Below, piece after piece: positions 25,297 through 50,436 of a stretch of DNA of 64,000 bases. The notes beneath the pieces are model-generated. The model made no database searches, was not told the origin of the DNA, and saw nothing but the letters and a program-made list of their open reading frames with translations. The position numbers were made by a program, and so were the translations under genes. Origin of the DNA: an uncultured Patescibacteria group bacterium (GTDB taxonomy: Bacteria; Patescibacteriota; Microgenomatia; UBA1400; PJMF01); contig CAJQIG010000001.1 of the NCBI GenBank assembly GCA_905478415.1, forward strand, positions 245,892-309,891, written 5' to 3'. The stretch's first letter is position 1; the number at the start of each line of letters is the position of its first letter.

Positions 25297-25311
25297 TAAT
25301 TTTTACCCATC

Positions 25312-26467: not shown

Positions 26468-26495
26468 TTTAGATAAATAAGGGATAACAATATTG

Positions 26496-31320: not shown

Positions 31321-31343
31321 CACTATATTGATAGAATGAACTT

Positions 31344-34300
31344 ATGGATTTAAAAAAAATTGATTTTAAACATTTAGCTCCAAAGACTGGGGATCAACGT
31401 ACTTCTTTTGAAGAATTATGTTGTCAGATTGCTTTGTATTCAGATAATGTACCCAAAGACAGTAAACCACATCGCCTAAGGGGTGATGGTGGTGATGGTG
31501 GTGTTGAATTTTACTGGGAGCTTCCGAATGGTGAAGAGTGGGGATGGCAAGCAAAATATGTGTTTGATTTAGGTAAGGTTAAAACTCAAGCTAAAAAATC
31601 GTTTGAGACTGCGATGGTAGTTCATCCAAGATTAACACGTTATTTTATTTGTATACCTTTTGATTTAACTGGAAATACAAAAAGGGGGAAAGGTGAAACG
31701 GAAAAGTGGGAGGAATTTAAAAAGGAATTAGAGCAACTAGCAAAAAATGAGAAACGAAAAATAGAGGTAGTGCTAGAACAACGTTTTGAGCTCCTTGATA
31801 AGTTGCTCCAAATGGATCCTTCTTTGGGAAGAATTAGATTCTGGTTCGAAAAAGATTTATTTAGTGAAAAGTGGTTTGGAGAGCATGTAGCAACCACAGT
31901 GAATAATATTCCTAGATACACTCCCAAACTTAAGGTTGATACGGATTTATTTAGAAAGCTAATGGCATTCACTCAGACTGGTGGTTGGGCGGATGGTTTA
32001 AAAAAGATTTATGAGGAATTTAAAGATAAAGCATATTATTGGTCTTCCACTGTGGAAACAAAAGATGACAAAGGTTGGGGTGCAAAATTTCCCGAAGAGT
32101 TGGTTGAGCGGGGAAAGGTTAGTGTTGATAAGGTCAATGTTGTTAAAAAGGTCATTGAGGACCTCTTGGTACAAGAGATAGTCCCCAGTGATGTCACTGC
32201 GTTGTTAAATCAAATTGACGACGCAACCACATATTTAAGGGAGCTTTCTAGAGATATTCGGGCTCAACTCGTGGAACAGCACGGTGAGGCTGCAGTTGAA
32301 TCAGCTAATTTTAGACAATGGAATGCTGAATGGATGGTGAGCTTTCCGATGGCTAATTTAGACTCAAGTAAAGATTTAATAAATCTACTAGAACAAGTAA
32401 GACTCTGGGTTAAAGAAAACTATATCGATTTATATAACTCAAAACTTCTTTTGCTAACTGGAGGATGGGGTGTGGGCAAAACTTTTGCTATTTGTGACTT
32501 GGCTGAACTGAGAAGAGTAAACAAGCAGCTAACTGTTTTGTTGTTTGGAGATGGCTTTATCGGTGGTACTGAGCCATGGGTCAAGATTCAAGAGCAGCTA
32601 GGGATTAATTTTGACTCCAAAGAAGCACTATTTGAGGCACTAGAGACAAGTGCAGAAACCTCAGGTTTTCCCTTATTGTTGTGCATTGACGCAATAAACG
32701 AAACAGAACCTAAAAGCTACTGGCAGAAAAAGTTGAGATTATTGGCAGCAGAGATAGAAAAGTATCCAAACTTAAATCTTTGTGTATCCTGTAGAACATC
32801 ATATAAGGATTATTTAGTTAGGGATGAGGTTGGTTTCATTGAAGCGAAGCATCCGGGATTCAAGGGAATTGAAAATGAAGCAGTCAATGCTTTTTTTAAT
32901 CATTTTGGCATCAAACCTCCATCGACGCCAATTATTCATCCTGAGTTTTCTAACCCATTGTTTCTAAAACTTGTCTGTCAAACTTTGCAGGCAAAAGGGC
33001 TGAAACAAATGCCAAAAGGCTGGCAGGGAATTAACACGGTAATACAGGCGTTTTTAGATAATAAAAATAGAGAATACGGTGAACAAAATGGGATAGATAA
33101 ACGGCATAAAATACCAGAGAAGGCACTCCAGTCTTTCGTTGGTGAGGCAAAGAGATTGCAAAAATCACTTCTTACTTGGGATGAAGCAAATACTGCAGTA
33201 GGTGCTGTATTGAAAGAGTCGGGAGTTGAAAATAGCACAAAAACCCCCTTGCTGGATTGGCTTATTGATGAGCATCTTTTGTTTGTTGATGCGGCACCTG
33301 CTGGTAGCAATAAGGAGAGAGAGCATGTCAGGATATCATTTGAAAGGTTGGGAGATCATCTGCTTGCATCCAGCTTTATTGAAGGCAAGGATGAATCAAA
33401 TTTAAAGAAGGATTTTTTGAGTGAAGGTGATTTAAATTTCCTTGTGGCTGATGCCAGCAGCATAGAGTCGAATCGGGGGCTATTAGAAGCTCTTTCGATT
33501 CAAATACCAGAAAGATTTAATTTGGAACTGAGCGATATTGTAGAAAATGATATTTTGGTTCAAATATCTGATCTGGTTATAGAACAACTTCACTGGCGAG
33601 ACCCTTCATATTTTGGCTCAAAAACTAAAATTCTAATTAATCGTGCTTTAAGAAATCAGAAGTCTTATCTAGCATTTGATGCACTTTTACTCAGTTCCTT
33701 TACTCCTTCTGACATAGATGCTTATTTCTTAGATGATTTGTTAAGAGCTAAGACAATGATTCAAAGGGACCCTTATTGGTGTGGTTATTTGTATTCGAGA
33801 TATGGTGACAATGAAGAGGGTAAAGATCTAGTCAAGAGAATACTTAACAACTCATTAAATCAAGAAATTCAGAATATACCTGAAGATCGTTTGGAAAGAT
33901 GGTGTATCACTTTAGGTTGGTTTTGTGCTGCAGCTGATAGAAGAATCAGAGATGGGGCAACCAAGGCATTAATCAATATAACTCAGACTAATCCAGCGAT
34001 ATGGGAAAAACTACTGAAACATTTTGGATCACTTGATGACGACTATATTATTGAAAGAACGTTAGCTGCAGCTTATGGCGTGTTACTTCTAACTAGACAT
34101 AAACCCACAGAAAAGAAACTAGCGAAAGTGGTAGACAATGTAATTTTTTCAAAAGTTGAAGTAATACACAACGCCGTTATAAGAGACTATGCTCGTTGTA
34201 TCATCGAATTGGCTATTTTGGATAAGGCAATGGCAAAAAAAGATGTCAAAAATGCCTTCTTAACTCCATATGCAAGTGATCCAAAACTGTTAAGAATCCC

Positions 34301-35552
34301 GAGTGATAAGGAAATTGAGGATGCTGAGCCGTTAGTGGAAAAGACAAAGCTGAAACTAAGTTGCTTTAGTGATGATTTTTTTAATTACACACTCGGATCG
34401 TTACGCCAATATGATCATTTTATGAATAAGAAAAATATGGCTAAGTGGGTTTTTATTCACATAGTGAACTTGGGTTATAGTAGGGCTAATTTTGAAAACT
34501 ATGAAGGTTACATGATGTTCACTCATGGTGGAGGGAGAGGTAAGCCAATTTGGGCTGAGAGAATAGGTAAGAAATACCAATGGATGGCTTTATTTAGATT
34601 GGCAGGCTTATTATCTGACAATGTAGAAATTAAGGCTGATAGTTGGGAACCGGAGCCATTGGTAACTCCACTTTCATTTGAGCGTGGTAGGCAGATTGAC
34701 CCATCAATACTAGTTAAAGAGCCTCAAACCCAAGCCTTTTACGATGACGACTTGTTTTGCAGATATAATTTTGATTTAAAAGAAAAATTATCTGATGAGG
34801 AATGGATTAAGTTTAAAGATGATCTGCCAACATTTGGCGATATTCAGAAAGATCACGGGGGAAAAGACCATATTCTGCTTAATGGACATATGGATCAGTC
34901 TAATAAAGGTGAGTTTGATAAATCAAACAGCAAACATCGAAGGTTTTGGATGTTAATTGATAGCTACCTCGTGAATCAGGATGATATAGAAAAAGCATGG
35001 AATTGGTTGTCTAAAAAGAACTTTATGGGAAGATGGATGCCAGATGGTGCAGAACATCATGATGGTTTCATAGGAGAATATCCATGGGGTACTCCCTTCA
35101 ATATCTACAAAGACTCCTATCTTAGCTATGGTCGGGACCCAGATAATGAAAAGTTTCCTTGTACTTTTTTTCCTACTGACGCAACTTTGCACTCGAGCGA
35201 AGAATATGATTCCTCAGGGCATAGCAATTTTGTTATAAAGGTTCCATCAAAGATTTTTTTTGAGAAAAGTAAACTTGAATGGAACAATGTTGACGGGTAT
35301 AAGTCTGGCAACAAACTTGTTTTTTTAGATCCTTCAATTTGCTCAAAAAGGAAAGGTGCACTTTTGGTGGAAAAAAAGTACTTAAGGAATTTTCTAGATA
35401 AAAATGGTTACGTTTTGATTTGGACTGTATTGGCTGAAAAATTAATAATGGGGATTGATAACAGCTTCATCCGACAAACATTTAACCAAATTCATTTGTT
35501 AAATAACAAAGGAGAATTTGAATCTTCAGTACCCAATATACTAGTAAAGTAA
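31344..35552 (+). CDS. 1402-aa NACHT/STAND-like P-loop NTPase with an N-terminal restriction-endonuclease-like (PD-D/ExK-type) domain and a roughly 950-aa C-terminal sensor-like region
   Basis: Walker A LLLLTGGWGVGKTF (about aa 370), Walker B LLLCIDAINE, and a sensor-like CVSCRTS. The N-terminus GDGGDGGVEFYWE...EEWGWQAKY resembles D...(E/Q)xK nuclease motifs. The long C-terminal region is helical with no recognisable repeats. Confidence 0.7.
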   Translation: MDLKKIDFKHLAPKTGDQRTSFEELCCQIALYSDNVPKDSKPHRLRGDGGDGGVEFYWELPNGEEWGWQAKYVFDLGKVKTQAKKSFETAMVVHPRLTRYFICIPFDLTGNTKRGKGETEKWEEFKKELEQLAKNEKRKIEVVLEQRFELLDKLLQMDPSLGRIRFWFEKDLFSEKWFGEHVATTVNNIPRYTPKLKVDTDLFRKLMAFTQTGGWADGLKKIYEEFKDKAYYWSSTVETKDDKGWGAKFPEELVERGKVSVDKVNVVKKVIEDLLVQEIVPSDVTALLNQIDDATTYLRELSRDIRAQLVEQHGEAAVESANFRQWNAEWMVSFPMANLDSSKDLINLLEQVRLWVKENYIDLYNSKLLLLTGGWGVGKTFAICDLAELRRVNKQLTVLLFGDGFIGGTEPWVKIQEQLGINFDSKEALFEALETSAETSGFPLLLCIDAINETEPKSYWQKKLRLLAAEIEKYPNLNLCVSCRTSYKDYLVRDEVGFIEAKHPGFKGIENEAVNAFFNHFGIKPPSTPIIHPEFSNPLFLKLVCQTLQAKGLKQMPKGWQGINTVIQAFLDNKNREYGEQNGIDKRHKIPEKALQSFVGEAKRLQKSLLTWDEANTAVGAVLKESGVENSTKTPLLDWLIDEHLLFVDAAPAGSNKEREHVRISFERLGDHLLASSFIEGKDESNLKKDFLSEGDLNFLVADASSIESNRGLLEALSIQIPERFNLELSDIVENDILVQISDLVIEQLHWRDPSYFGSKTKILINRALRNQKSYLAFDALLLSSFTPSDIDAYFLDDLLRAKTMIQRDPYWCGYLYSRYGDNEEGKDLVKRILNNSLNQEIQNIPEDRLERWCITLGWFCAAADRRIRDGATKALINITQTNPAIWEKLLKHFGSLDDDYIIERTLAAAYGVLLLTRHKPTEKKLAKVVDNVIFSKVEVIHNAVIRDYARCIIELAILDKAMAKKDVKNAFLTPYASDPKLLRIPSDKEIEDAEPLVEKTKLKLSCFSDDFFNYTLGSLRQYDHFMNKKNMAKWVFIHIVNLGYSRANFENYEGYMMFTHGGGRGKPIWAERIGKKYQWMALFRLAGLLSDNVEIKADSWEPEPLVTPLSFERGRQIDPSILVKEPQTQAFYDDDLFCRYNFDLKEKLSDEEWIKFKDDLPTFGDIQKDHGGKDHILLNGHMDQSNKGEFDKSNSKHRRFWMLIDSYLVNQDDIEKAWNWLSKKNFMGRWMPDGAEHHDGFIGEYPWGTPFNIYKDSYLSYGRDPDNEKFPCTFFPTDATLHSSEEYDSSGHSNFVIKVPSKIFFEKSKLEWNNVDGYKSGNKLVFLDPSICSKRKGALLVEKKYLRNFLDKNGYVLIWTVLAEKLIMGIDNSFIRQTFNQIHLLNNKGEFESSVPNILVK

Positions 35553-36467: not shown

Positions 36468-36485
36468 CTATCTTATCATTATATA

Positions 36486-36545
36486 TAAGACGCAGCCTCT
36501 CGAGGTTTTCAAGAAATGGTTCAAACTGAGTTACCTTAGGGTCAC
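36486..36545. repeat. 60-bp direct repeat, copy A (51/60 identical to copy B at 37803-37862); upstream element of the PLD nuclease gene
   Basis: TAAGACGCAGCCTCTCGAGGTTTTCAAGAAATGGTTCAAACTGAGTTACCTTAGGGTCAC. On the minus strand it carries a -35-like TTGAAA followed 18 nt later by TTATAT(ATAAT). Confidence 0.7.
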
Positions 36546-36594: not shown

Positions 36595-37653
36595 TTACTC
36601 AAAATGCTTTGTATAAAATTCAACTGTTCTCTGCATTGCTAAAGAAAAGCTAGGATCTTCTATATTGTGCCCACCATTTGGATATTCCCATAGTTCTATT
36701 TTAAGATTAGATTCTTTAGTTTTTTCTACTAAGTTTCTACTATATTCAATACTTACTACAGAGTCATTTACAGCATGATGAATCTGAATTGCGGAGTTGG
36801 AGTCTTTGAGGTATTCAATTGGCGACACTTCATTCCAGAATAAACTATCTGAAGAGAATGTTCCATGAATATCAAAAAGCCTTTCCCTTTCTTCTTTTTT
36901 ATTATAGTTAATATCTTGTTTAATATATGAACTATCATTGATAGCATAGTCTTTCATGTCTTGATATGTATACACTGCTCCAGCCCAAATAACACCAGTG
37001 GTAATTTCTGGTCTAGCTGCCATAGTTCTTGATACAATATTTCCGGCCATACTATGTCCCCACAAGCCAATTTTAGATGGATTTACAAAATCAGTTTGCT
37101 GTAAAGCAGTCTGAGCATTCATAACATCTCTAATATAGTCACTAGAATAATATGCTCCATGTGCGTCACCTTCAGATTCTCCATGACCACGCAAATCAAT
37201 TTTAAAAACTACAAAACCACTTCGTGCTAAATAATCAACGTACTCAACATATTTACTTAAAGTCTTATATTGATCTGGAGGAATGTATCCATGAATAAAA
37301 ATTATTGCAGGCCAACCATCACTGGGCTGTTCACCATCAGGAATCGTAAGCAATCCATCAATTTTAAAATCATCTGAAACATAGTTCGTTAAGTAACTAG
37401 TATACTTAGAATTTTGTGATATTTGGTCTAACTCTCCTAACTGACTCTCATAGTAGTACTTCCTCAGATAAGGAATCGTTAACTCCTCAAATGGAACAGT
37501 ATCTTGTACTAAATTTTGATTCGTAGTAAACTCAGTTTCACTTGATTTACTAGATATTTTAGAATTACTTTGATCAGTTCTTATAACAATCAAAAGAATT
37601 ATTGTAAAAATAAATAGAATAAAAATGAACATCAATACATATTTTTGTCTCAT
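36595..37653 (-). CDS. Membrane-anchored alpha/beta hydrolase (S9/dienelactone-hydrolase-like esterase or peptidase)
   Basis: N-terminal TM (LMFIFILFIFTIILLIVI). Nucleophile elbow GLWGHSMAGN (GxSxG), IIFIHGY, and Asp/His downstream (HHAVNDSV...GGHN). Confidence 0.75.
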   Translation of the reverse strand: MRQKYVLMFIFILFIFTIILLIVIRTDQSNSKISSKSSETEFTTNQNLVQDTVPFEELTIPYLRKYYYESQLGELDQISQNSKYTSYLTNYVSDDFKIDGLLTIPDGEQPSDGWPAIIFIHGYIPPDQYKTLSKYVEYVDYLARSGFVVFKIDLRGHGESEGDAHGAYYSSDYIRDVMNAQTALQQTDFVNPSKIGLWGHSMAGNIVSRTMAARPEITTGVIWAGAVYTYQDMKDYAINDSSYIKQDINYNKKEERERLFDIHGTFSSDSLFWNEVSPIEYLKDSNSAIQIHHAVNDSVVSIEYSRNLVEKTKESNLKIELWEYPNGGHNIEDPSFSLAMQRTVEFYTKHFE

Positions 37654-37802
37654 AATACATATTCTATAGTAATAGCATGAGAAATTACTGAGAACATCAT
37701 TGCTCTAGATACTATTTACAAACCTTTTCTATCATTAAAAAAACTTAACAATTAATAATTACTTGGAAAATAAAAATTTATTTGAATTTTTTTCACAATA
37801 TC

Positions 37803-37862
37803 TAAGACGTAGCTCCTCGAGTTTTTCTAAAAATGGTTCAAGCTGAGTTGCTTTAGGGTCAC
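37803..37862. repeat. 60-bp direct repeat, copy B; upstream element of the alpha/beta-hydrolase gene
   Basis: TAAGACGTAGCTCCTCGAGTTTTTCTAAAAATGGTTCAAGCTGAGTTGCTTTAGGGTCAC. 85% identical to copy A, in the same orientation and the same position relative to the downstream gene. Confidence 0.7.
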
Positions 37863-38298: not shown

Positions 38299-39582
38299 AT
38301 GGAAGAAAAGTTTAAAAAACAATTATGTTTAATGCCTGAGACACACAATCGCCTAAACCAAGCTTTTGTACTTTTTCAAGGTATTAAAGATAACTATCAC
38401 GATGAACTATTATTTACATCCAATTTAAATAATATAATCCAAGCACTGAGAAATGTTACTTTTGTAATGCAAAAAGAGCTTGCGCATACAGAGGGATTTG
38501 AAAACTGGTACAAAAAGAAACAAGATGAAATGCGAGAAGACAAATATCTTAGATGGTCTGTTAAAGCAAGAAACCATGTCGTAAAAGAAGGAGACTTAAA
38601 AAAATTTAGCTACACAAAAGTCAGATTGAAAAACCATTTTGACACAGAACTTTTTGGGGATAGATTAGATCATAAAATATCATTAGGGCATATAGCTGAT
38701 TGGTTTAGACAAAAAGTAAAAATTCCCAAAGAAATTAAGGACTACGCAATAATTGAGGCCGAGCGTATATGGATAATTGAAGACTTTCCTGAATCAGAAG
38801 TTATTGACATAATCATTTACTGCTTTGGATTACTTACTAACCTGGTTTACTTAGCCCATGAAGAGGTACTAGGTATTAATTCACTAGCATGTGAGAAGAA
38901 TACCTATGTTTCTGCTGACGAGGATTATATGGTGAAACTACACAACACCATTGCTGAAGGAAGAATCAATCAAATCTCATATAGTTCTGGTGCAATAATG
39001 ACTAGATCAAGCTTACGAATCACCCTCGCTGAAGATTCATTTAATGAGGTATATAAGAGGTATTCAAAACTTGAAGCAATATTAGAACTAAGTAAAGTAG
39101 AAGCTGGAGACTTACCATTCAACAAAATTCCATACCATATTGAGACCGCAAAACACTTCCTAGAAGTGGATGGTAGTATAATGCCCACTGTTTTTCTTTA
39201 CTTCACAGATAAGCCACCCATAATTCAGGCTTTAGGTTTTAGTCGGCCTACCGACAGGTATTTAATTGCTGAAGATATAGCAAAAAAGATTACGGAGACA
39301 CAATGTGCCGCTGTTGTGTTGGTCACTGAGACTTGGCATGGCAAAATGCCAAAAAATGGAGAAAAATATATTCCTGCATCAGTACAGAAAGCAGGCGAAA
39401 GTATTAGTGTATTCGCTTCATCACCAAAAAGATTAGACAGGTACTCGGTCGAAATCTTACGTGATAAAAATAATAAATCTATAATTGGCGAAGAGAACCA
39501 CAGTAAAAATATGAATCCTGACAACGTACCCTTTTTTAATCGTATCTATGATGTTTGGGCAGATGTAGAGTGGGCAAAATAA
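38299..39582 (+). CDS. Hypothetical cytosolic protein (427 aa), a lone gene in the islet between att-like repeats
   Basis: Long ORF with no TM segments and no recognisable motif. Upstream palindrome TACTCTCAATAGAGTA at about 38255-38270. Confidence 0.5.
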   Translation: MEEKFKKQLCLMPETHNRLNQAFVLFQGIKDNYHDELLFTSNLNNIIQALRNVTFVMQKELAHTEGFENWYKKKQDEMREDKYLRWSVKARNHVVKEGDLKKFSYTKVRLKNHFDTELFGDRLDHKISLGHIADWFRQKVKIPKEIKDYAIIEAERIWIIEDFPESEVIDIIIYCFGLLTNLVYLAHEEVLGINSLACEKNTYVSADEDYMVKLHNTIAEGRINQISYSSGAIMTRSSLRITLAEDSFNEVYKRYSKLEAILELSKVEAGDLPFNKIPYHIETAKHFLEVDGSIMPTVFLYFTDKPPIIQALGFSRPTDRYLIAEDIAKKITETQCAAVVLVTETWHGKMPKNGEKYIPASVQKAGESISVFASSPKRLDRYSVEILRDKNNKSIIGEENHSKNMNPDNVPFFNRIYDVWADVEWAK

Positions 39583-39826: not shown

Positions 39827-40399
39827 TTATTTTTTATCCGAATTAACTTTGTTTAACTCCATAAGATAAGTGTCTTCTGTATCACCATCCAGCCTTACCG
39901 TCTTAATATACTTAAATCCGACCTTTTCATAAACATGAATAGCTCTTGTATTGCTTGGTTCAGGACCAATCACACACAATTTAATTTTTGGATCAACAAA
40001 AACAACCTGATTCAAAAATTCTGAAAGCATCAAAGATCCAAAACCTTTACCTATATAGCTTTTATCACCTAAAAATAAATCTATGCTTTCAACACTATCA
40101 TCGTAATCTAATATGTTAGACCAATCCTCCCAATCTTTTATAAAGTACTTTTGTATATAACCAACTGGTTTGTTATCATACAAAACATAAAAACAATCAG
40201 TTGGTTTCTCACCTTTAATCTTAGGTAAATATCTTCTTGAAACATTATCTAAAGTAATTTCTTTATCTTTATCATAGAACTCATGAACATGAGAGCTGCG
40301 AAGCCATTTGAAAAGAAGCTTGAGATCTCCAGCAACTAAAGGTCTAAATGTAATTTTTTGTTTATCAAAATGATTGTTCATATATATTGATCTTATCAC
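39827..40399 (-). CDS. GNAT acetyltransferase with AAC(6')-type aminoglycoside N-acetyltransferase motifs
   Basis: Motif blocks recalled from AAC(6')-Ie: LKLLFKWLRSSHVHEFY, PVGYIQKY, FLGDKSYIGKGFGSLMLSEFL, GPEPSNTRAIHVYEKVGFKYI, EDTYLMEL. The probable true start is the ATG at 40381 (MNNHF); 40399 is a GTG. Confidence 0.65.
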   Translation of the reverse strand: MIRSIYMNNHFDKQKITFRPLVAGDLKLLFKWLRSSHVHEFYDKDKEITLDNVSRRYLPKIKGEKPTDCFYVLYDNKPVGYIQKYFIKDWEDWSNILDYDDSVESIDLFLGDKSYIGKGFGSLMLSEFLNQVVFVDPKIKLCVIGPEPSNTRAIHVYEKVGFKYIKTVRLDGDTEDTYLMELNKVNSDKK

Positions 40400-40701: not shown

Positions 40702-41445
40702 ATGCTTACAAACATCTCACACACTGCTTTTTTATCAGCTCCACTTATTTCTCTCTTAGATGACAATCTAAAGGCAAAAAAGAAAGAACATCAAGATCAT
40801 CACCAATTCTATGCTCGAATTGTTCAGATAGCAGCGCAACACCAAGTCTCTGTCTATGAACCTTCAAAGTATATGGATCCAGACCTGCATGATTATATTC
40901 GTCCAGAACAAATCTATCAAAAAAATAGGGATATCATCCGTACTAGTGATCTACTTATTGCTTATGTGGGAAAAGTATCTGCAGGAGTTGGAATGGAAAT
41001 TGAAATTGCAAATTCTTTTCGTATACCTGTTATTTTGCTCTATGAAAATGATTCATATAATAAAGTAAGCAGAATGGTATTAGGTTGTAGAATGGCAAAA
41101 CATCAAATTTCAGCTAATTCACTTTTAGAACTAAGTACTTCATTTGAAAATAAATTCCCTTCAATACTTTCTGAGATTGAAGAAGAGAGAATGTATGTAC
41201 TTACTCCTAAAAAAACAAATCTAATCAAACAACTAGTTGCTATTCATAACGCTTCATCCCTCAGCATTGGACAAGTAGCAATAAGAGCAAGCATAGACAA
41301 AAGTTATATTTCTCGTTTACTCAACGAAAAAATCAGTAATCCTGGTAGGGATCAAATAATTAGACTTTGTGCCTGGGGTTGGAAAATTGACTTTGCTCGC
41401 ACCAATGAATTACTACACGATGCAGGGTATGAACAACTCTGGTAA
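40702..41445 (+). CDS. Fusion protein: N-terminal nucleoside-2-deoxyribosyltransferase-like (NDT/SLOG-fold) domain plus C-terminal XRE-type HTH
   Basis: NDT-like core SDLLIAYVGKVSAGVGMEIEIANSFRIPVILLYE. C-terminal HTH SIGQVAIRASIDKSYISRLLNEK. Confidence 0.5.
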   Translation: MLTNISHTAFLSAPLISLLDDNLKAKKKEHQDHHQFYARIVQIAAQHQVSVYEPSKYMDPDLHDYIRPEQIYQKNRDIIRTSDLLIAYVGKVSAGVGMEIEIANSFRIPVILLYENDSYNKVSRMVLGCRMAKHQISANSLLELSTSFENKFPSILSEIEEERMYVLTPKKTNLIKQLVAIHNASSLSIGQVAIRASIDKSYISRLLNEKISNPGRDQIIRLCAWGWKIDFARTNELLHDAGYEQLW

Positions 41446-41525
41446 GGTTGTTTTTTATTGTTCATGCAACGGTCTTCAACAGATTTTCTAGAATCATGCT
41501 GTTATTATTCTTTCAACGCTAAAGT

Positions 41526-42305
41526 TTGGAGAAAAATATGTGCTTAGAAAACAAATCACAATGCCCACACATGAATGCTGTACAAGAAAAACTTACACAA
41601 CATACAGAGTACGATACTGTCCATACTAACGCAGACTTAAATGAGGATGATAAAACTATATCAATACAAAACCTTTGGCATAAAAAAGGGTATAACGGCT
41701 GTATCTTTTCACAAGTTATTGCGCAGTCTCCCTCAGAATATGAATGGCAGGCTTCTGTGGTTCATAACTTAGATAGTACTAGTGGTCAAGAAATAGATAG
41801 CTTAATTAACCAAGCAATTGAAAACCCCGCAGTGCGATTATTAAGTATCATTTTTCCTACAGTTCAAACACAAGAAGATCTTACTAGATTAGTCGAAATT
41901 TTATGCTATGAAACAGCCAGTATGCACCTTCTTAATGACGAATCATTAAATAGCTTTGTTGCATTATCTTTCAGAGTAGCATTAGAAAATGATGAGGTAT
42001 TAGCATGGGTCATGGGATTTGGCCCACACGAATCTTTTGCTAAAACTAGACAATCACCATATACTGAAATTGTAATTCCAGTTAAACCAAAACCTGATGA
42101 TACGTATCATAGGCACAATAATGATAAAAGCTCTGCTCATGTTGCAGATCAACATATTGATCTTGATGAGAAAGTAATGGATCGACTTTGGGATAATACT
42201 TACAAAAAAACTAGAAAAGTATTAGGTCACGAACCAGATCTTTTTTCCGGAGCAAGAACTACATTTACTATACCTGAAAATGATTGGGTAAAAATTAAAC
42301 GCTAA
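41526..42305 (+). CDS. Hypothetical protein (259 aa); possible YqcI/YcgG-like family member
   Basis: Conserved-looking KGYNGCIFSQ and WVMGFGPHESF blocks. Family assignment is from memory only. Confidence 0.35.
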   Translation: MEKNMCLENKSQCPHMNAVQEKLTQHTEYDTVHTNADLNEDDKTISIQNLWHKKGYNGCIFSQVIAQSPSEYEWQASVVHNLDSTSGQEIDSLINQAIENPAVRLLSIIFPTVQTQEDLTRLVEILCYETASMHLLNDESLNSFVALSFRVALENDEVLAWVMGFGPHESFAKTRQSPYTEIVIPVKPKPDDTYHRHNNDKSSAHVADQHIDLDEKVMDRLWDNTYKKTRKVLGHEPDLFSGARTTFTIPENDWVKIKR

Positions 42306-42313
42306 AGGAAAAT

Positions 42314-42829
42314 ATGTCAGTAGAAAGAAACTTTAAATTATCAGAGTATGATCTCAAAACCTACACTCTCATTTATCTAATAAGTCAGGGCATGATCTTA
42401 CTCTTGCAAAGAGATGATGGCAAATCAGATATGGCTGGAAAAATCACAGGCCTTGGTGGAAAAATTGAGCAAGGTGAATCACTACTAGACTCTGCAAAAA
42501 GAGAATTTTATGAAGAAAGTGGTTTACACATTCACGACCCAGAGTTAAAAGGCACCTTTCAATGGTTAGATGAATCTAAAAAGATATGCATGACACACAT
42601 CATATTTGCACGCCAATATTCTGGAGAATTACTAGAAGAAAATCGAGAGGGAATCTTAGCTTGGTATCTTATAGCAAAACTACAAGAAATTGAAACATTG
42701 GCACAATACCAAATGATGTTTTTACCTTATCTTCTGGAAGATAGTAACCATTTTTACTCTGGCATAGGGGAATTTAGAAATGAAGAATTGATAGATTATA
42801 TTGATTCAAAAGGAGGAAAGAATGTCTGA
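42314..42829 (+). CDS. NUDIX hydrolase
   Basis: Nudix box GGKIEQGESLLDSAKREFYEESGL (Gx5Ex7REUxEExGU). Confidence 0.85.
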   Translation: MSVERNFKLSEYDLKTYTLIYLISQGMILLLQRDDGKSDMAGKITGLGGKIEQGESLLDSAKREFYEESGLHIHDPELKGTFQWLDESKKICMTHIIFARQYSGELLEENREGILAWYLIAKLQEIETLAQYQMMFLPYLLEDSNHFYSGIGEFRNEELIDYIDSKGGKNV

Positions 42830-43226
42830 GAAAATTACTATTTGTGGTTCGATGCAATTTGCGAAAGAAATGATTCATCTTAAACATCAACTGGAAGATT
42901 TAGGCTGGATTGTCCTTACACCAGATTTTTCAGAAAAATCATCTACATATGAAAGTCTTCCATCCGACGAAAAAATAGAAGTAAAAAAGGAAATGATTAG
43001 TAACCACTTTAGTCGTATCAAACAATCAACAGCAATTCTTGTAGCAAATTATGATAAAAAAGGAATTAAGGGATATACTGGCTCAAATACACTTATGGAA
43101 ATTGCGGTAGCCCATGTTCTACAGATAGAAATTTATGTTCTCAACACACTTGGTGAACAAGTATGTCAAGAAGAAGTAACTGCTCTTACAACTAGATTTC
43201 TCGATGGTAACTTAAAAAATATCTAA
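42822..43226 (+). CDS. Nucleoside-2-deoxyribosyltransferase-like (NDT/YtoQ/SLOG-fold) protein, 134 aa
   Basis: Perfect SD AGGAGGA 4 nt before the ATG at 42822. Pattern KITICGSMQF...GWIVLTPD...AILVANYDKKGIKGYTGSNTLMEIAVAH matches NDT-fold proteins. Confidence 0.5.
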   Translation: MSEKITICGSMQFAKEMIHLKHQLEDLGWIVLTPDFSEKSSTYESLPSDEKIEVKKEMISNHFSRIKQSTAILVANYDKKGIKGYTGSNTLMEIAVAHVLQIEIYVLNTLGEQVCQEEVTALTTRFLDGNLKNI

Positions 43227-43236
43227 ACATCTTACA

Positions 43237-43932
43237 ATGAAAACTCCTGAAATCTACAATCAGTCTTCAGTATCACATAATGAGCAGGGAAAACCTTACA
43301 TTAGAGTGAATTTAGCCGGTCAAGAAGTTGATCTACCTATGCAGACCGTTATCACTAACTCGTCCGAGTTACTACTTGCATGGGTTGATGCAAAACGAGA
43401 AGAAATAACAACCTATGGAGCTTTAGCACTATCTAAGTTGCTTGATGAAGTTAATCCAAGCATTGTCATATCACCATTTTCATCAAAATCTATCCCAATG
43501 GCGGTTCAAGCAGTGAATGATTGGAATAAAAGACAGAATAATGATGTGCCTCTACTTATACTCAGTGGCGGAAAAGATGAAAAATTAGTAAAATCTCAGA
43601 CTGGTAGTGATGGTTTTTCCATGAACTATAATCCCGTCACCTCAACCCAGCAAGCAAAATATATTGGCTTATCTCAGCAGCATGCACAATTAATTCAAAA
43701 TGTAATTTCAGCTGGAAATAAAGTTGCAATAATTGATGATGTATATGGAACTGGGGCAACTGTAAATGCCGTAAGAAAAATTATTGAAGTAGCAACACAA
43801 CGTAAAATTGAAGATTCTCAACTCCCTATAATAGTCGTAGCGCGTGAGGTAGAAGGTAAGTATGAAGAACAACTTATTCATTCTGTCTTAGCCTCAATAA
43901 TAATTCCAATTATTAGAGTTATTTCTGAATAA
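43237..43932 (+). CDS. Type I phosphoribosyltransferase-domain protein (PRPP-binding motif near the C-terminus; ComF/APRT-like)
   Basis: PRT motif VAIIDDVYGTGATVNAV preceded by an uncharacterised N-terminal region of about 160 aa. Confidence 0.65.
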   Translation: MKTPEIYNQSSVSHNEQGKPYIRVNLAGQEVDLPMQTVITNSSELLLAWVDAKREEITTYGALALSKLLDEVNPSIVISPFSSKSIPMAVQAVNDWNKRQNNDVPLLILSGGKDEKLVKSQTGSDGFSMNYNPVTSTQQAKYIGLSQQHAQLIQNVISAGNKVAIIDDVYGTGATVNAVRKIIEVATQRKIEDSQLPIIVVAREVEGKYEEQLIHSVLASIIIPIIRVISE

Positions 43933-44239: not shown

Positions 44240-44636
44240 ATTATCTATAGTATAACTTCTACAGGATTTCCTTCTATCTCAATTGTACTAACACTACCAA
44301 ATGAAAACACAAGGCCCATCTCTAAGAACAGTGCATTTGTATTTTGATCTCAATAACTCAGATATAACATCCGTAATAAATATGCATAGTCTCTAACATT
44401 GGGTGTTCCTACTTCTAGTTTTTCAAATAAAGCATCTCGTTTAGTGGAAACGTACCAACTTTTCAACTCATCCATGTCCTTAATAAAAAGGAAAGGATCT
44501 AGATACTCAGAATCAACTTGTCTATATGTGGGATCAGTGCTTACCTTATCATTAGTGGGAGGTACCCCCAGCTGTCTAAACTAACACTGTTTCCTTCTTG
44601 TACTTAGAGTCAATCTCTTTAGTTAGCAACAACAAC

Positions 44637-45704: not shown

Positions 45705-47132
45705 CTATTCAACCTTAATAACTGTCAACATACCTGCTTCAGCATGCTCTAAGACATGACAATGACTGACCCACGTGCCCTCATCGAGCGGAATCACTCC
45801 AATATCAATAACTTCTTTTGATTTTACTAAAACAGTGTCACGAAGATATGGTTCATCTACTGGTTCTCCATTTCTTGATAAAACTTTAAAAAATTGTCCA
45901 TGTAAATGCATTGGGTGTAATCTAGATGAGGCATTTGTGAAACGTATCACAGTAAACTCACCTTTTTTTAATATAATTGGGTCGTAATCTGGGTACGCTT
46001 TGCCATTAATTGTCCATTCAATGCCATATTGACCACCTCTTCTAGCATCAAGCACATACTCTTGGTTAATTTGCAAAGTATTTGTAGCATTCCAATCAGG
46101 AAATATTTGGGCTGTTGGAGTGGTAAACTCTTGAGCTTCAATAACTGTTCCATCAATTAAGATGCGAACCAAGCTATTTGTCTCTCGCGTAAAGATATCC
46201 CTGATAGAATACTGTTTTCTCTGAGATTCTAAAGGAATAGTGATATCAACATCTATTCTATTTCCGGGTGATAACTCAAATCCACTTGCAGAAAACGGTT
46301 CTTTTGAGAGCATGCCATCAACAGCAAAGCCTTTTACATCTAAACCACCAAAATCAAGTTGATACACTCTAGCATTCGATGTATTTACAAATCGCAGTCT
46401 TACTCGCTCTCCCGCCTTAGCATTCAGCGTATAGTCTGACAAACCATTAACGGTAACAATGTTCCCCCAGCGACCATCATGCATTAAGTCATGTCCAGTA
46501 TTAAAGCGTGAATCAATTTGGCCAGTTTGATCAATTCTCCAATCGTCAAGGATGACAACTTTGTCTTGATCATAGGTTGGTTCCTCAGGATCTTCTACAA
46601 CAATGGTTCCATATAACCCTCGTTCCACTTGTTCGCTTCCTCTAACATGTGGGTGGTACCAAAAAGTACCAGCATCTTTAGGAACAAATTCATAAATAAA
46701 TTTTTCACCTGGCTTTATCGGCTCTTGAGTTACTCCAGGAACACCATCCATAGCATTAGGGACTCTGATACCATGAAAATGAATTGTTGTTTCTTGAGGA
46801 AGGTTATTTTCAAAGTTAATTTTAAGCGTATCACCTTTTGAAACTCTGATTTCGGGACCTGGAACTTGTCCATTGTATGTCCAGACATCAATTGGGTTGC
46901 TCGCAAATAAATCTAGCGTTGCTTTTTTAGCAACCAAAGTAAATTCTTTGGTCACTCCGTTAGGTTCAATATCTTCTAGGTATGCGTTTTCATATATAGA
47001 AGAAGAGTTGGTCTGCAGATTTTTTTTCAGATATTTGGTTATAAAAAAAGACAGGAGCAATAAAAAAAAGAGTAAAAATACAAATTTTAATTGGGTACTT
47101 TTCGAATATATTGGGTTATTCTTATCTATCAT
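45705..47132 (-). CDS. Multicopper oxidase (CueO/CopA/laccase family), copy 2
   Basis: HFHG, YHPH, HPMHLHG and HCHVLEHAEAGM copper motifs. Paralogue of 23863-25296. Confidence 0.9.
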   Translation of the reverse strand: MIDKNNPIYSKSTQLKFVFLLFFLLLLSFFITKYLKKNLQTNSSSIYENAYLEDIEPNGVTKEFTLVAKKATLDLFASNPIDVWTYNGQVPGPEIRVSKGDTLKINFENNLPQETTIHFHGIRVPNAMDGVPGVTQEPIKPGEKFIYEFVPKDAGTFWYHPHVRGSEQVERGLYGTIVVEDPEEPTYDQDKVVILDDWRIDQTGQIDSRFNTGHDLMHDGRWGNIVTVNGLSDYTLNAKAGERVRLRFVNTSNARVYQLDFGGLDVKGFAVDGMLSKEPFSASGFELSPGNRIDVDITIPLESQRKQYSIRDIFTRETNSLVRILIDGTVIEAQEFTTPTAQIFPDWNATNTLQINQEYVLDARRGGQYGIEWTINGKAYPDYDPIILKKGEFTVIRFTNASSRLHPMHLHGQFFKVLSRNGEPVDEPYLRDTVLVKSKEVIDIGVIPLDEGTWVSHCHVLEHAEAGMLTVIKVE

Positions 47133-47147
47133 TACTATCTAGATTTG

Positions 47148-47636
47148 CTATTTTTCAAGTTGTTCTTTAAAAAACTTTAGTTCTTTATAGGTGTGGTTAT
47201 ATACAGCTTTTTCACCTTTAAATACACTCACAAAAAACCAGTGGATCACCTTACCAAAAACTGAGTCTGGAAAATCCATAAAAACATTATGATTTAAGTG
47301 TGTGCCATCTTCTTTTTCTTCGAGTGTGAGCAAACCACCTTCTGGAATTCTTATCTTAAAAAATAAAATTGGATATACAGCAACACCTGTCCATACCAAT
47401 ACTTTAGGACGATCTGCATACATTATTTGACCCTTTAAATCTGCATAAAAATTTGCGACTGTCTCTTTCTGATGAAACGTCACTTCGGTGTGCGGTCTAT
47501 TGTCTCTACTATTAAAAACCAAGCCCAAGTGCTCCTCTGGATTTGAAGCAGTCCAGTTCACAGGATCATGTGCATAATCCCAAATTTTTTCTGGTGAATT
47601 TTTAATGGTTATGTTGGTATTTTGTTTTAATAACAT
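47148..47636 (-). CDS. SRPBCC (START/Bet v1-like) superfamily protein
   Basis: Length and pattern KIWDYAHDPVNW...TFHQKETVANFYADLKG are typical of polyketide-cyclase/AHSA1-like folds. Low specificity. Confidence 0.4.
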   Translation of the reverse strand: MLLKQNTNITIKNSPEKIWDYAHDPVNWTASNPEEHLGLVFNSRDNRPHTEVTFHQKETVANFYADLKGQIMYADRPKVLVWTGVAVYPILFFKIRIPEGGLLTLEEKEDGTHLNHNVFMDFPDSVFGKVIHWFFVSVFKGEKAVYNHTYKELKFFKEQLEK

Positions 47637-47642
47637 AGTAAT

Positions 47643-49793
47643 TTAGAGTTTTAGCTCAACCTTTCTAAGTGTCATTGCATTAATAACTACTACCACGCTT
47701 GAGAGACTCATAAGCAACGCTCCCACAGCAGGACTGAGGCGAAACCCAAAAGGAATAAATAGTCCTGCAGCCGCGGGAATAGCAACTAGATTATATCCAA
47801 GAGCCCACCAAAGATTTTGCAACATCTTTGAGTATACTTTTCTTGATAAGAGTATGAGTCTCACAAGGTGTTGTGGATTACTTTGAGTAAGAATAATATC
47901 TCCGGCTTCAACCGCTACATCCGTACCTGCTCCAATAGCAACTCCCACGTCTGCCTGTGTTAAAGCTGGGGCATCATTGACACCATCTCCAGCCATAATG
48001 ACCACATTGCCTTGCTCCTGAAGTTGCTTAATATGCTTATATTTGTCTTCTGGCAGTACTTCTGCAAATACTAGATCTATTTCCAGTTCTTTTGCAACTG
48101 GCTGGGCAGCTGACTTAATATCACCTGTTAACATTGCAACTTTCACTCCAAGTTTATGTAGTTCTTGCACTGCTTGTTTTGATTCTTCTTTGATTTCATC
48201 ACTGAGTGCAATTACTCCCAATATTTCAGAATCACTAGAAATGAAAACAGGAGTTTTACCTTTACTCGCCAATTGATCTAGAGCTTCTTGAGATGTTTTA
48301 GTCCAAACTTTTCTTTCTTCCATTAATCGCTGGTTTCCTAAAAAGTATTCTTTCTTTTCAAAATATCCTTGCATACCTCTGCCTGCTAGATTTTTAACCT
48401 TAGTTGCTTCACTGAAAGTAATCTTTTTCTCTTGTAAGTAATCAAGAATAGACAAACCAATGACATGAGAAGAGTGTGATTCTATAGCTCCAGCAACTTT
48501 GAGTAGTTGGTCTTCTTCTCCAGAAATCACTACCACGTCAGTTACGCCGAACTCTCCTTTTGTCAACGTTCCCGTTTTATCAAAAACTACGTAATCAGTG
48601 CTTTTTACAATCTCAATTTTTCCCATATCTTTAATAAATACTCCATTTTTGACAGCTAGCCTGGTTGCAATAGTTGAAACAGTCGGTATAGCCAAACCCA
48701 AAGCATGAGGACAAGCAATCACTAATACGGTAATTGCTAGTGTTGCAGAAAAAACTAAGGGTTGTCCAATTACTACTGACCAAATAAATAACGATGAAAA
48801 CGATACAGCTATAGCAAAAAATGTAAGCCATTTCGAGGCCTTATCAGCTAATTTTTGAGCAGAAGGTTTTGTCTGCTTAGCTTGAGAAATAAGGCTTTGA
48901 ATTTGACCGATGGTAGATGAATCTCCAACACGTAATAATTTAATTTCAACAGAACCATCAATACTAATTGCCCCAGCTACAACTTCTGAGCCCACATCTT
49001 TCTTAACTGGCTTTGACTCTCCTGTAATATGTGATTCATTAAAACTTCCACTACCTTTAATAATTTCTCCATCAGCTGGAGCTTTTTCCCCTGGTTTAAC
49101 AATAACAATGTCGCCTTCTTTCAGTCTTGAAATCTCAACCTCTGTTACACCTGACTCCGTTTTAAGATGTGCTTCCTTTGGAAGTAATTTTGCTACTTCT
49201 TGCAGTGCATCTCCAGCTGCTGTAGATGATTTTGCTTCTAAAAAATGTCCAAAAAGCAGCACCCAAATAAGAGTAGCTATTTCTAAATAAAATTCAACTT
49301 GAAGAGCCGGTATAAAGGTGGATAGTGCTGAAAATATGTATCCAGAACCAACTCCAAGCGAAACCAGCGTCATCATGCCATATTGTCTTGCCATAATTTC
49401 ATGGCGTGCATGGTCAAAAAAAACCAAGCCAAAATAAAAGATTATAGAAGCAATGCCAAACTCAAGTAATGACCTCAAAGCAAAGTCTGGGACACCTAAA
49501 AATTTTACAGCTGGCTCAGAAAAGATAGCTAGAGGAACCAGGAGAACGGTAACAATATAAAATCTTCTTAAAAATTCATGAGCTGCTTCTGGAGTTGCCA
49601 TCATGCTAGCGTGATCATGTTTGTCATGTCCACCACCCATCTCACTTTTTTTAACTAATTCCATACCACACTTGGAACATTCCCCAGGATGGTCCTGGTG
49701 TATTTCTGGGTGCATGGGACAGGTATAATAATCAGCTTGGTGGTTATGTGCTACATGTTGCATATTTTTCTTACTGTGATGTGAGTGTTTCAT
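47643..49793 (-). CDS. copB: CopB-type copper P1B-3 ATPase (TM6 CPH motif) with a His-rich N-terminus and a CPMHPE...CxxCGM heavy-metal-binding domain
   Basis: MKHSHHSKKNMQHVAHNHQ; YTCPMHPEIHQDHPGECSKCGMEL; TGES; ACPHALGLAIP; DKTGTLT; MLTGD; GDGVNDAPAL. Confidence 0.85.
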   Translation of the reverse strand: MKHSHHSKKNMQHVAHNHQADYYTCPMHPEIHQDHPGECSKCGMELVKKSEMGGGHDKHDHASMMATPEAAHEFLRRFYIVTVLLVPLAIFSEPAVKFLGVPDFALRSLLEFGIASIIFYFGLVFFDHARHEIMARQYGMMTLVSLGVGSGYIFSALSTFIPALQVEFYLEIATLIWVLLFGHFLEAKSSTAAGDALQEVAKLLPKEAHLKTESGVTEVEISRLKEGDIVIVKPGEKAPADGEIIKGSGSFNESHITGESKPVKKDVGSEVVAGAISIDGSVEIKLLRVGDSSTIGQIQSLISQAKQTKPSAQKLADKASKWLTFFAIAVSFSSLFIWSVVIGQPLVFSATLAITVLVIACPHALGLAIPTVSTIATRLAVKNGVFIKDMGKIEIVKSTDYVVFDKTGTLTKGEFGVTDVVVISGEEDQLLKVAGAIESHSSHVIGLSILDYLQEKKITFSEATKVKNLAGRGMQGYFEKKEYFLGNQRLMEERKVWTKTSQEALDQLASKGKTPVFISSDSEILGVIALSDEIKEESKQAVQELHKLGVKVAMLTGDIKSAAQPVAKELEIDLVFAEVLPEDKYKHIKQLQEQGNVVIMAGDGVNDAPALTQADVGVAIGAGTDVAVEAGDIILTQSNPQHLVRLILLSRKVYSKMLQNLWWALGYNLVAIPAAAGLFIPFGFRLSPAVGALLMSLSSVVVVINAMTLRKVELKL

Positions 49794-49841
49794 ACCTTCA
49801 TTATGACGATACTACTGATTGCTGTCATCACCAATGTTTTG

Positions 49842-50423
49842 TTATTTATTGCTTGCTTTTTTTATAAAAAAATATATTCCTGATAATAAAAATGAAATAA
49901 ATGCAAACCAGGTTAATCCTGATTGAATTCCAAACAAATTACCACCCCAACCCATCATTGACATGTCCCTTGGGTAAAAATTATTTGATTCATTATCTCT
50001 GAGTCCCATCATGGAGCCCCCCGTCATCATTCCTTGTGAATAACTGGTTCCACAACCCAAGTACCTACTTCCCATACGTATATGTACTTGTCTTAATGAT
50101 TCTGACCCTTCGCCACCCATCATTCGATCCATAACTTCATGAGCCTCTCCAGGGTGCTGTTGTTCCATCACCGCATCTCCAAGTTGCTCTAGGTCATCTT
50201 CACTTATTTCGTCACAACTTACCTCTTGAATAGTAGTACTACCTTGCTTCTCGAGTATTGCTTGTAAGACAGTTTCAATGGACTCTCCATGTTGAGTTGT
50301 TTCTGTATCACTGCTTTCAACTTCATTTAAACCCATCATTCCCCCTTGAGCTTGAGCTATTTTAGTATGAAAAAACAACAGATTCAAAAAAAGAAAAAAA
50401 ACTACAAATAGAAAACGTTTCAT
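49842..50423 (-). CDS. Methionine-rich secreted or membrane-anchored protein (putative Cu(I)-binding; MMG/MxxM clusters)
   Basis: Signal peptide, then MMGLNEV..MDRMMGGEG..SQGMMTGGSMMGLRD..DMSMMGWGG, and a C-terminal TM. Met-rich motifs as in CopB/PcoB/CusF-type copper binders. Confidence 0.55.
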   Translation of the reverse strand: MKRFLFVVFFLFLNLLFFHTKIAQAQGGMMGLNEVESSDTETTQHGESIETVLQAILEKQGSTTIQEVSCDEISEDDLEQLGDAVMEQQHPGEAHEVMDRMMGGEGSESLRQVHIRMGSRYLGCGTSYSQGMMTGGSMMGLRDNESNNFYPRDMSMMGWGGNLFGIQSGLTWFAFISFLLSGIYFFIKKASNK

Positions 50424-50436
50424 ATCAACCCTCCTG

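Follow-up and report, generated by a model that had tools for sequence, protein, structure and literature searches.

The stretch of DNA analysed here (64,000 nucleotides of contig CAJQIG010000001.1 from an uncultured Patescibacteria group bacterium; hereafter the window) carries five genes, A to E, that lie in the order A-B-C-D-E on the forward strand between positions 40702 and 43932 (Table 1). They form a rare but conserved operon of the ultra-small Candidate Phyla Radiation (CPR) bacteria (Patescibacteria, Dojkabacteria-like). Our preferred reading, held tentatively and at somewhat less than even confidence, is that this operon is self-contained, horizontally mobile and accessory, and that it would return unwanted non-canonical or scavenged (deoxy)nucleotides, by way of the base, to the ribonucleotide pool. 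The family relationships of the predicted proteins lean towards nucleotide-pool processing, as they include a MutT-like Nudix hydrolase (C), a protein with a DNPH1-like CGS motif (D) and a phosphoribosyltransferase (PRTase) resembling adenine phosphoribosyltransferase (APRT) (E). The component superfamilies are already known, and B is genuinely uncharacterised. Apparently new in the libraries and literature searched are the five-gene combination, a putative regulator (A) that joins a nucleoside deoxyribosyltransferase (NDT) fold to a helix-turn-helix (HTH) domain and is accompanied by a conserved candidate operator, and the B family.

We predict that C converts (d)NTPs to (d)NMPs and pyrophosphate, as expected from its family. 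D, as a DNPH1-like N-glycosidase, would split (d)NMPs into the base and (deoxy)ribose-5-phosphate, and A may do likewise. B would act on the released base or on the nucleotide, and E would join the base to phosphoribosyl pyrophosphate (PRPP) to give the NMP. The NDT-fold domain of A would sense a nucleotide, and may turn it over, with its XRE-type HTH switching the promoter of B to E from a repeat in the A-B spacer. We infer all of these catalytic steps, the substrate and the binding of A to the repeat from sequence.

Table 1. Coordinates in the window of the five genes and of two putative regulatory elements.
Feature	Position	Strand	Length	Description
Gene A	40702..41445	+	247 aa	N-terminal NDT/DrHyd-fold domain and C-terminal XRE-type HTH (residues ~172-225)
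Direct-repeat element	41465..41480	+		TGCAACGGTCTTCAAC (TGCAAC-N4-TKCAAC) in the A-B spacer, from spacer comparison; candidate operator of A
Extended -10-like element	41500..41508	+		TGTTATTAT, ~22 nt 3' of the repeat; candidate promoter of B-C-D-E
Gene B	41538..42305	+	255 aa	Uncharacterised family without a Pfam model; GGAG 8 nt before ATG
Gene C	42314..42829	+	171 aa	Nudix hydrolase, Nudix box at residues 49-71
Gene D	42822..43226	+	134 aa	Divergent stand-alone member of the NDT superfamily; shares 8 nt with the end of C
Gene E	43237..43932	+	231 aa	Type I APRT-like PRTase, PRPP loop VAIIDDVYGTGAT at residues 162-175

Gene organisation

The five genes are co-directional, as described in the initial annotation, and the same five are called in an identical public ENA contig (ERZ23498645 scaffold_3, 584 kb) and in further assemblies from that population. 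Relatives with over 90% identity, in Candidatus Dojkabacteria, carry only generic annotation. The starts first proposed for B and D were moved from TTG 41526 to ATG 41538 and from TTG 42801 to ATG 42822, respectively. The original family assignments (an NDT fold with an HTH, a Nudix hydrolase, a second NDT-like protein and a PRTase) came through profile tests broadly intact. A and B are separated by 92 nt, followed by 8 nt between B and C, the C-D overlap of 8 nt and 10 nt between D and E. The spacing from B to E is so small that these genes constitute a single tightly coupled unit, with A just upstream.

Gene A and its candidate operator

Residues 31-119 of A match Pfam PF05014 at 39.0 bits (cut-off 28.8), in agreement with the NDT/SLOG-type domain proposed for it. 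The XRE-type HTH to which this domain was said to be fused is indicated by matches that are weaker, though consistent with one another. Residues 184-223 score below threshold with HTH_19 (23.7 bits, 4.5e-5; cut-off 30.2) and HTH_31 (20.9 bits, 4.5e-4; cut-off 27), and the ortholog of A in locus L012 has sub-threshold matches to HTH_31, HTH_3 and HTH_26 in the same region. A profile of five A orthologs gives weak C-terminal matches to SinR and prophage HTHs (E 0.3-0.7). The repeat conserved upstream of B provides indirect support for the HTH.

The same five-ortholog profile matches CMP N-glycosidase 4jen (2.8e-4), NDT 7m5h, MilB and BlsM. These matched solved NDT-fold chains, at 145-190 residues, leave no room for a C-terminal HTH. 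The segment SAGVGMEIEIA of A aligns with SLGVGYELGRA of rat Rcl/DNPH1 (4fyh), and E99 of A corresponds to the catalytic Glu of Rcl (GVGYELG), 4jen (GTHIEIG) and NDT (GVASEIG). This residue, for which a check had been advised, is thus retained, and it is invariant in the five orthologs, as are S93, G95 and E101. We propose that A is a regulator, going by its domain architecture; because the catalytic residues are intact, it may also be an enzyme.

The direct repeat in the A-B spacer is the single exact occurrence of TGCAAC-N4-TKCAAC in the whole window. It occupies the equivalent position, directly 5' of B, in all fetched loci for which a close B homolog and upstream sequence are available, among them L012 (44/40% amino acid identity) and a Saccharibacteria contig. 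In an alignment of eight spacers, with a mean column identity of 45%, the 12 repeat bases do not vary. Inverted-repeat operators were also sought in the A-B spacers, and none is conserved. In L005 the element is found in addition upstream of E, which is separately placed there. Among the 23 loci then collected, it was absent except 5' of B, at E of L005, and at an operon of L001 (5766-7907) in which a second copy (TGCAAC-N4-TTCAAC) precedes a gene for a 183-amino-acid, weakly GNAT-like protein, an FGase-family amidohydrolase (PF05013, 3.9e-42) and then A. The regulon thus seems larger in L001, and A may be autoregulated. A link through GNAT genes was considered and rejected: the GNAT-like gene of L001 matches neither of the GNAT genes that flank the cluster in the window. 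Loci with distant B relatives (L016-L023) lack such an element, and lack an A gene where the sequence is long enough to tell.

The repeat is probably an operator bound by the HTH of A, through which A would control B to E, as well as E where that gene is separate. The extended -10-like element 3' of it is predicted to function as the promoter of B-C-D-E. The form TGnTAT(T/G)AT recurs at nearly equal distance in 5 of the 7 other aligned spacers; a promoter and terminator consensus scan showed no enrichment over shuffled sequences. If the transcript starts about 7 nt after the -10-like element, the centre of the repeat lies at about -42, a position that would suit a typical class II activator. 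A repressor is also possible.

Gene B, a family without a solved relative

The initial annotation had placed B in no family and given it 259 residues. The former holds, as searches of Pfam, NCBIfam and PADLOC with B gave no match; the corrected length is 255 residues. A word-indexed search of 5.8 billion proteins returned close relatives in 13 clusters, all unnamed or Patescibacteria, and the closest named homolog (85% identity) is a Dojkabacteria 'hypothetical protein'. A profile search extends the family to 389 representatives (clusters at 50% identity) at E<=1e-3, 85 of them at E<=1e-30. None of the 94 members scanned matches a relevant Pfam model, and one member has a weak C-terminal match to CYTH.

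Invariant in B are C55, F57, R171, P174 and A239, with Cys55 lying within the motif GxxGCxFA(Q), and near-invariant are W47, G54, W70, S103, R146, T170, E177, K183, H201 and D204. The conserved residues include His, Asp and Glu as well as a cluster of Arg and Lys, the latter suggesting a phosphorylated ligand. An AF2 model built from the 94-sequence alignment (pLDDT 93.9, pTM 0.90) places Cys55 directly N-terminal to the helix 56-63; it supersedes an earlier model from 14 sequences, with pLDDT 64, for which the fold search was uninformative. The best Foldseek match of the new model in the PDB has an E value of 0.035 and a TM score of 0.27, so that no solved relative was identified. A BFVD fold search yielded nothing significant, and PDB sequence and profile searches with B were negative.

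Two candidate identities were rejected. Nitric oxide synthase (NOS) oxygenase domains head the Foldseek matches, which would suggest a NOS-like heme-thiolate protein, yet their E values of 0.035-0.4 and TM scores of at most 0.28 are too weak. A YqcI/YcgG assignment had been floated for B and found no backing, as PF08892 was matched neither by B at E<=0.1 nor by the 94 family members at E<=0.01. The corresponding piperazate synthase fold (KtzT/PipS, PF08892) does not occur among the 50 Foldseek PDB matches listed; solved piperazate synthases exist, and their presence in the fold library searched was not checked. Piperazate synthases also use a His heme ligand, whereas B has an invariant Cys.

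Predicted enzymes C, D and E

C matches PF00293 at 42 bits (cut-off 21.1). Its Nudix box, read from the translation, is complete (G49-KIEQG-E55-SLLDSAK-R63-E64-F-Y-E67-E68-S-G70-L71; consensus GX5EX7REUXEEXGU), in keeping with its description as a canonical Nudix hydrolase. The best NCBIfam models are those of the PRK08999 Nudix family, MutT and pyrimidine (d)NTP diphosphatase, all of them below equivalog cut-offs, and C appears closest to (d)NTP pyrophosphohydrolases of the MutT/NudG type. ADP-ribose pyrophosphatase-type models (NudE, ADPRase, YffH) reach E values of 0.015-0.095. A proline about 16 residues past the Nudix box is a signature of ADP-ribose pyrophosphatases; it is absent from C, in which residues 86-88 are D-E-S and the only nearby proline is P76. 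In locus L008 (6046-6560), which derives from the population of the window, C is called as two open reading frames (ORFs; 77 and 79 amino acids) and the other four genes are intact. The split may reflect either a frameshift that occurs naturally in this population or a fault of assembly.

D is preceded by the perfect Shine-Dalgarno sequence noted earlier (AAGGAGG, 6 nt before ATG), and an identical protein of 134 residues (P0014, 100%) is encoded on 28 contigs. The proposal that D is a second NDT-like protein is supported through its family, 14 of whose 46 members match PF05014 (best 5.9e-7) and one of which matches DUF4406; D itself matches no Pfam model. Sequence and profile searches of the PDB with D gave no match, and an hhalign comparison of the D profile with A was negative. 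C8, G9 and S10 are at least 90% conserved in the family, and N76, K79, G87, N89, E93 and E118 are invariant, with E93 lying within NTLMEIA. The ICGS motif of D resembles the phosphate-binding FCGS of DNPH1. The D family is widespread in CPR and DPANN organisms.

E is recognised mainly by its PRPP loop, since it scores 16.4 bits against PF00156, below the cut-off of 26.3. The loop VAIIDDVYGTGAT follows the PRPP-binding consensus (hydrophobic x4, D-D/E, x2, T/S-G-x-T), is invariant from D167 to T175 in three orthologs and matches the APRT and HPT models of NCBIfam (3.7e-6 to 1e-3). A profile of the three sequences finds adenine/guanine PRTase 6fsp/5zgo at 2.6e-3, with a weak alignment over the N-terminal 'hood'. 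This alignment supports the PRTase assignment. The loop had been described as near the C-terminus; about 55 residues follow it, much as in APRTs, so its position is not unusual.

Distribution of the module

Recurrence of the module was assessed by BLASTP and phmmer against the ORFs of the fetched loci. All five genes, A-B-C-D-E, occur in L001 (a JGI metagenome) at 59-80% amino acid identity. A-B-C-D without E is found in L003/L014, from a Patescibacteria metagenome-assembled genome, and B-C-D in L005, where A and E lie on the opposite strand. L012/L013 have A-B, with identities as low as 44% and 40%, on a contig that also encodes ParA and Phage_rep_O, and L015, the Saccharibacteria contig, carries part of B. 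At least four diverged CPR lineages have A-B-C-D(-E), each time between unrelated flanking genes. A pattern scan of 185,579 GTDB species genomes confirmed 2 loci with the patterns used, and a metagenome scan for further loci found 2. No close relative of B was detected in a scan of IMG/VR, and searches of 50,697 phage records for homologs of A, D and E found none. The possibility that the genes are core and syntenic in relatives, which would point to a housekeeping role, had been raised at the outset; the module proved to be rare and its flanks variable, indicating an accessory rather than a core unit.

Neighbourhoods of the wider B family

B relatives at 25-40% identity occur in loci of 33-68% GC. 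The shared theme of their contexts is nucleotides, nucleobases and base repair. B lies between a HAD hydrolase and a Nudix gene in L017. It follows a deoxynucleoside kinase and precedes a fusion of MOSC with an MGMT DNA-binding domain in L018, and in L016 B itself is fused to CYTH and followed by a D-like NDT protein. In L019 a MOSC+DNA_binding_1 fusion, a DUF488 gene and B occur in that order on an integrase-bearing element, with ImmA/HTH genes near, and in L022 such a fusion is directly 3' of B. In L021 a UDG-superfamily gene adjoins B, and SIR2_2, Multi_ubiq and a dGTPase-like HD gene lie around them. In L001 and L003, Ham1/ITPase genes are found 0.1-3.4 kb from the CPR module, which in L003 also has an HhH-GPD glycosylase gene nearby. 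MOSC proteins and Ham1/ITPase are classical enzymes for detoxification of N-hydroxylated and deaminated purines (PMC3831636, PMC5818509, PMC3288088).

The MOSC+DNA_binding_1 fusions of three unrelated loci lie no more than one gene from a distant B (L018 2629-3435, L019 5514-6314, L022 4158-5012). That of L022 has PLHR in place of the usual PCHR motif and may thus be alkyltransferase-like rather than active. L020 (5730-7689) encodes two tandem B paralogs, with an AAA/RuvB_N ATPase gene upstream of them and a gene for a weakly DHH-like protein next.

Two Cellulophaga phages, phi17:2 and phi4:1, encode a shorter B homolog, gp004, that retains the GC-x-FA, TRQSP and AKTTF motifs (29% identity, tblastn E 6e-15). 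In phi17:2 (L024, NC_021798.1; 302-4361) gp004 has 182 residues, lacks the N-terminal helices, and lies in an early/replication block with the macro-domain gene gp002, the UDG gene gp008, the cREC_REC gene gp010 (1.2e-20) and DNA polymerase I. These genes are arranged alike in phi4:1.

Surroundings in the window

Upstream of the cluster, at 26493-35552, is a type IV secretion system (T4SS)-like set (26.5-31.3 kb) that comprises T4SS_pilin, PrgI, an amidase-like gene, a TraG/VirB4-like P-loop ATPase (28888-30702) and Peptidase_M23. It is followed by a gene for a 1402-amino-acid protein, with strongly positive GC skew, and then by genes for an HTH, a PLDc_2 protein and a lambda Ea47-like protein. 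The approximately 20-kb segment that includes the cluster is bracketed by paralogous multicopper oxidase genes (77% amino acid identity, both on the reverse strand; regions 23863-25743 and 45705-50835), with a DUF302 gene near each. Given the T4SS-like genes and the bracketing paralogs, we place the cluster in a variable region, possibly derived from a conjugative element, of which the T4SS-like set may be a remnant. Element boundaries or an integrase were not identified in the ORFs examined.

Several other features were noted nearby. The 427-amino-acid protein encoded at 38299-39582 is matched to Phage_lambda_Ea47 (PF26900) in precomputed Pfam annotation. An AAC(6')-like GNAT acetyltransferase gene (39827-40399; NCBIfam 8e-26, below the equivalog cut-off) lies a short way upstream of A and is read from the other strand. 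The downstream multicopper oxidase belongs to a copper-resistance block with a P-type ATPase, YHS, DsbD and thioredoxin. The approximately 400 nt at 44240-44636, from a 101-amino-acid membrane-protein ORF to a gene for a 341-amino-acid GNAT-like protein, contain no convincing ORF, and publicly only a 41-amino-acid gene is called there. This interval has no excess RNA structure and may be a decayed gene.

The degenerate tRNA-like repeats said to flank the cluster could not be recovered by ARAGORN, Rfam or repeat finding. The only tRNA that ARAGORN found in the window is at 9456-9529, and Rfam gave nothing tRNA-like between 35500 and 45000 even at E<=5. The sole notable repeat is a 73-nt direct pair (36473-36545 and 37790-37862, 82% identical) about 3 kb upstream, which brackets a gene for a 352-amino-acid alpha/beta-hydrolase (36595-37653, reverse strand) rather than the cluster. 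It may be what was taken for tRNA-like repeats.

Weighing of alternative explanations

Several points weigh against the recycling of (deoxy)nucleotides that we favour. A direct-repeat site is unusual for an XRE HTH on an NDT dimer that presumably has two-fold symmetry. For the B family, the evidence from gene neighbourhoods comes from about 10 loci rather than from a census, and the B step leaves a hole in the middle of the pathway. E is missing in one lineage (L003/L014), and re-attachment of the base would thus not be obligatory. Cleaving a nucleotide only to rebuild it seems futile for substrates other than deoxy or modified ones; the proposed pathway is chemically sensible only for deoxy or non-canonical nucleotides. 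Release of the base followed by the PRPP route would be a way from the deoxy to the ribo series, or of removing a modified nucleotide. Finally, the T4SS-bearing variable region and the defence-type neighbours in L001 (SMEK_N, AAA_23/DUF2326) and L021 (SIR2_2 and the dGTPase-like HD gene) fit a role in conflict too.

Such a role, which we consider unlikely but which is the main rival, would be that of a conflict system carried on mobile elements, for phage defence or to counter host immunity. As a defence, the module might deplete or corrupt the nucleotide pool, or destroy phage-specific modified nucleotides; as a counter-defence, it might degrade immune nucleotide signals, process NAD+/ADP-ribose derivatives or rebuild a depleted pool. 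The setting is suggestive, given the T4SS-like, HTH, PLDc_2 nuclease-like and lambda Ea47-like genes of the approximately 20-kb segment, the ParA and Phage_rep_O genes beside A and B in L012, and the integrase and ImmA/HTH genes beside B in L019. In addition to SIR2_2 and the dGTPase-like HD gene, L021 has Multi_ubiq, and SMEK_N and AAA_23/DUF2326 are upstream of the module in L001. The Cellulophaga phage B homolog lies between a macro-domain gene and UDG and cREC genes, and macro and cREC have been linked to the processing of ADP-ribose derivatives (PMC9503650).

A search of PADLOC-DB v2 found weak matches for three of the proteins (C to PDC-S07, 3.4e-9; E to ShosT, 1.1e-4, and PRTase_III-A, 1.9e-4; A to PDC-M35B, 0.0096) and none for B and D. 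All of these matches are weak and at a generic superfamily level, however, and none of the five proteins matches a defence system confidently. The operon has no recognisable sensor/effector pair, reverse transcriptase (RT), nuclease or NTPase. C is MutT-like rather than ADP-ribose-specific, and E is of the type I APRT-like class, not of the type II PRTase fold of NAMPT. The absence of A, D and E homologs from the phage records and of close B relatives from IMG/VR also argues against conflict, and dedicated regulators of the ligand type, with an operator, are found more typically in metabolism.

An improbable alternative to (deoxy)nucleotide recycling is that the genes serve to make a free modified base or an unusual nucleotide, for instance a signal, a cofactor precursor or a nucleoside-type antibiotic. 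The base would be freed by an NDT-fold hydrolase, in the manner of MilB and BlsM, and modified by B; attachment to PRPP would fall to the PRTase, and trimming of the phosphates to the Nudix enzyme. The best solved relatives of A are indeed hydrolases of CMP or hydroxymethyl-CMP (4jen, MilB and BlsM), and a PRTase and a Nudix gene share the operon. In the pathways to tubercidin and toyocamycin, a PRTase occurs together with a Nudix or HAD phosphatase. In L001 the candidate operator also stands 5' of the GNAT-like and FGase genes, and FolE2, TauD and SDR genes are downstream. These extras of L001 are not conserved elsewhere, however, and conserved tailoring, export or resistance genes are lacking. 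The hosts are genome-reduced CPR bacteria, and members of the wider B family have repair and salvage genes as neighbours rather than biosynthetic clusters.

Ordinary housekeeping salvage of purines and pyrimidines, core to the lineage, is very improbable: although CPR bacteria, which lack de novo nucleotide synthesis, need PRTases and nucleotide hydrolases, and although the D family is widespread in CPR and DPANN, close B relatives amount to 13 clusters and, with the patterns used, 2 GTDB species genomes, the flanks differ in every lineage, the module has its own regulator and a variable region around it, and its Nudix gene is split into two ORFs in the population variant L008.

Comparison with known systems

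Among characterised proteins, the 2'-deoxynucleoside 5'-phosphate N-hydrolase DNPH1/Rcl and the CMP (hydroxymethyl-CMP) N-glycosidases MilB/BlsM (NDT/'DrHyd') are the closest to the NDT-fold members of the module. A shares with them PF05014, the catalytic Glu and the preceding S-x-G-x-G motif, and the D family shares PF05014 matches, an N-terminal CGS motif and an invariant Glu; they differ in the extra C-terminal HTH of A and in the divergence of D. Nucleotide sensors built on enzyme folds have precedents in NrtR (Nudix-like with a winged HTH), B. subtilis PurR (PRTase-like with an HTH), PyrR and NadR. A follows the same logic of an enzyme domain joined to DNA binding, and is encoded beside its putative targets with a conserved site ahead of them. 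It differs in the NDT/DrHyd sensor fold, the XRE-type HTH, the direct-repeat site and the intact catalytic residues.

House-cleaning by MutT/NudG, the ITPase Ham1/RdgB and the MOSC proteins YcbX/YiiM, which detoxify base analogues, provides another parallel, as C is near MutT/NudG, Ham1 genes are neighbours in two loci and MOSC fusions in three. These enzymes act singly rather than within a regulated operon of five genes that includes an N-glycosidase and a PRTase, and MOSC and Ham1 genes are not inside the cluster of the window.

The cluster has superfamilies in common with retron effectors (NDT- and PRTase-type, with an HTH in type III-A) and with ShosT of Shosta. At about 1e-4, the matches of E to ShosT and PRTase_III-A are far too low to indicate more than a shared superfamily. 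Retrons consist of an RT and an msr/msd noncoding RNA, and the original view that the cluster is not a retron is borne out. An RT domain was not found in the five genes and four neighbours, and no msr/msd-like RNA is evident, as there is no Rfam match nearby and no stable RNA fold (flanking non-coding sequences, folded against shuffles, give z +0.8, +0.6 and -0.9).

Phage gene sets for NAD+/ADP-ribose metabolism (Macro, cREC, Nudix, SLOG/DrHyd; PMC9503650) likewise combine DrHyd-fold and Nudix proteins. The cluster lacks macro, cREC, NADAR, ART and sirtuin genes, however, and C and E resemble (d)NTP- and purine-type enzymes, not those of ADP-ribose or nicotinamide metabolism. A literature search found nothing specific on this gene combination in CPR bacteria or elsewhere.

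Implications

The A protein and its candidate operator could serve as a nucleotide-responsive switch. The B family, which extends to marine phages, is a well-defined target for new nucleotide chemistry, with its confident model, no solved relative and repeated linkage to genes of nucleotide metabolism and base repair. A bolder proposal, which we regard as distinctly unlikely, is that B founds a new enzyme family, possibly with a new fold, and works with DrHyd-fold N-glycosidases, a Nudix enzyme and a PRTase. The pathway so formed, mobile and controlled by a ligand, would recognise and take apart a single kind of modified or damaged (deoxy)nucleotide, such as one derived from phage or scavenged DNA. 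If so, it would be a kind of nucleotide-pool immunity or sanitation not described before, which an NDT-fold/HTH regulator turns on through a new operator. Transfer of bases from the deoxy to the ribo series, or removal of modified nucleotides, would suit organisms that live on scavenged nucleic acids. A regulated module that chooses which nucleotides to destroy and which bases to recycle would bear directly on how CPR episymbionts feed and protect their genomes.

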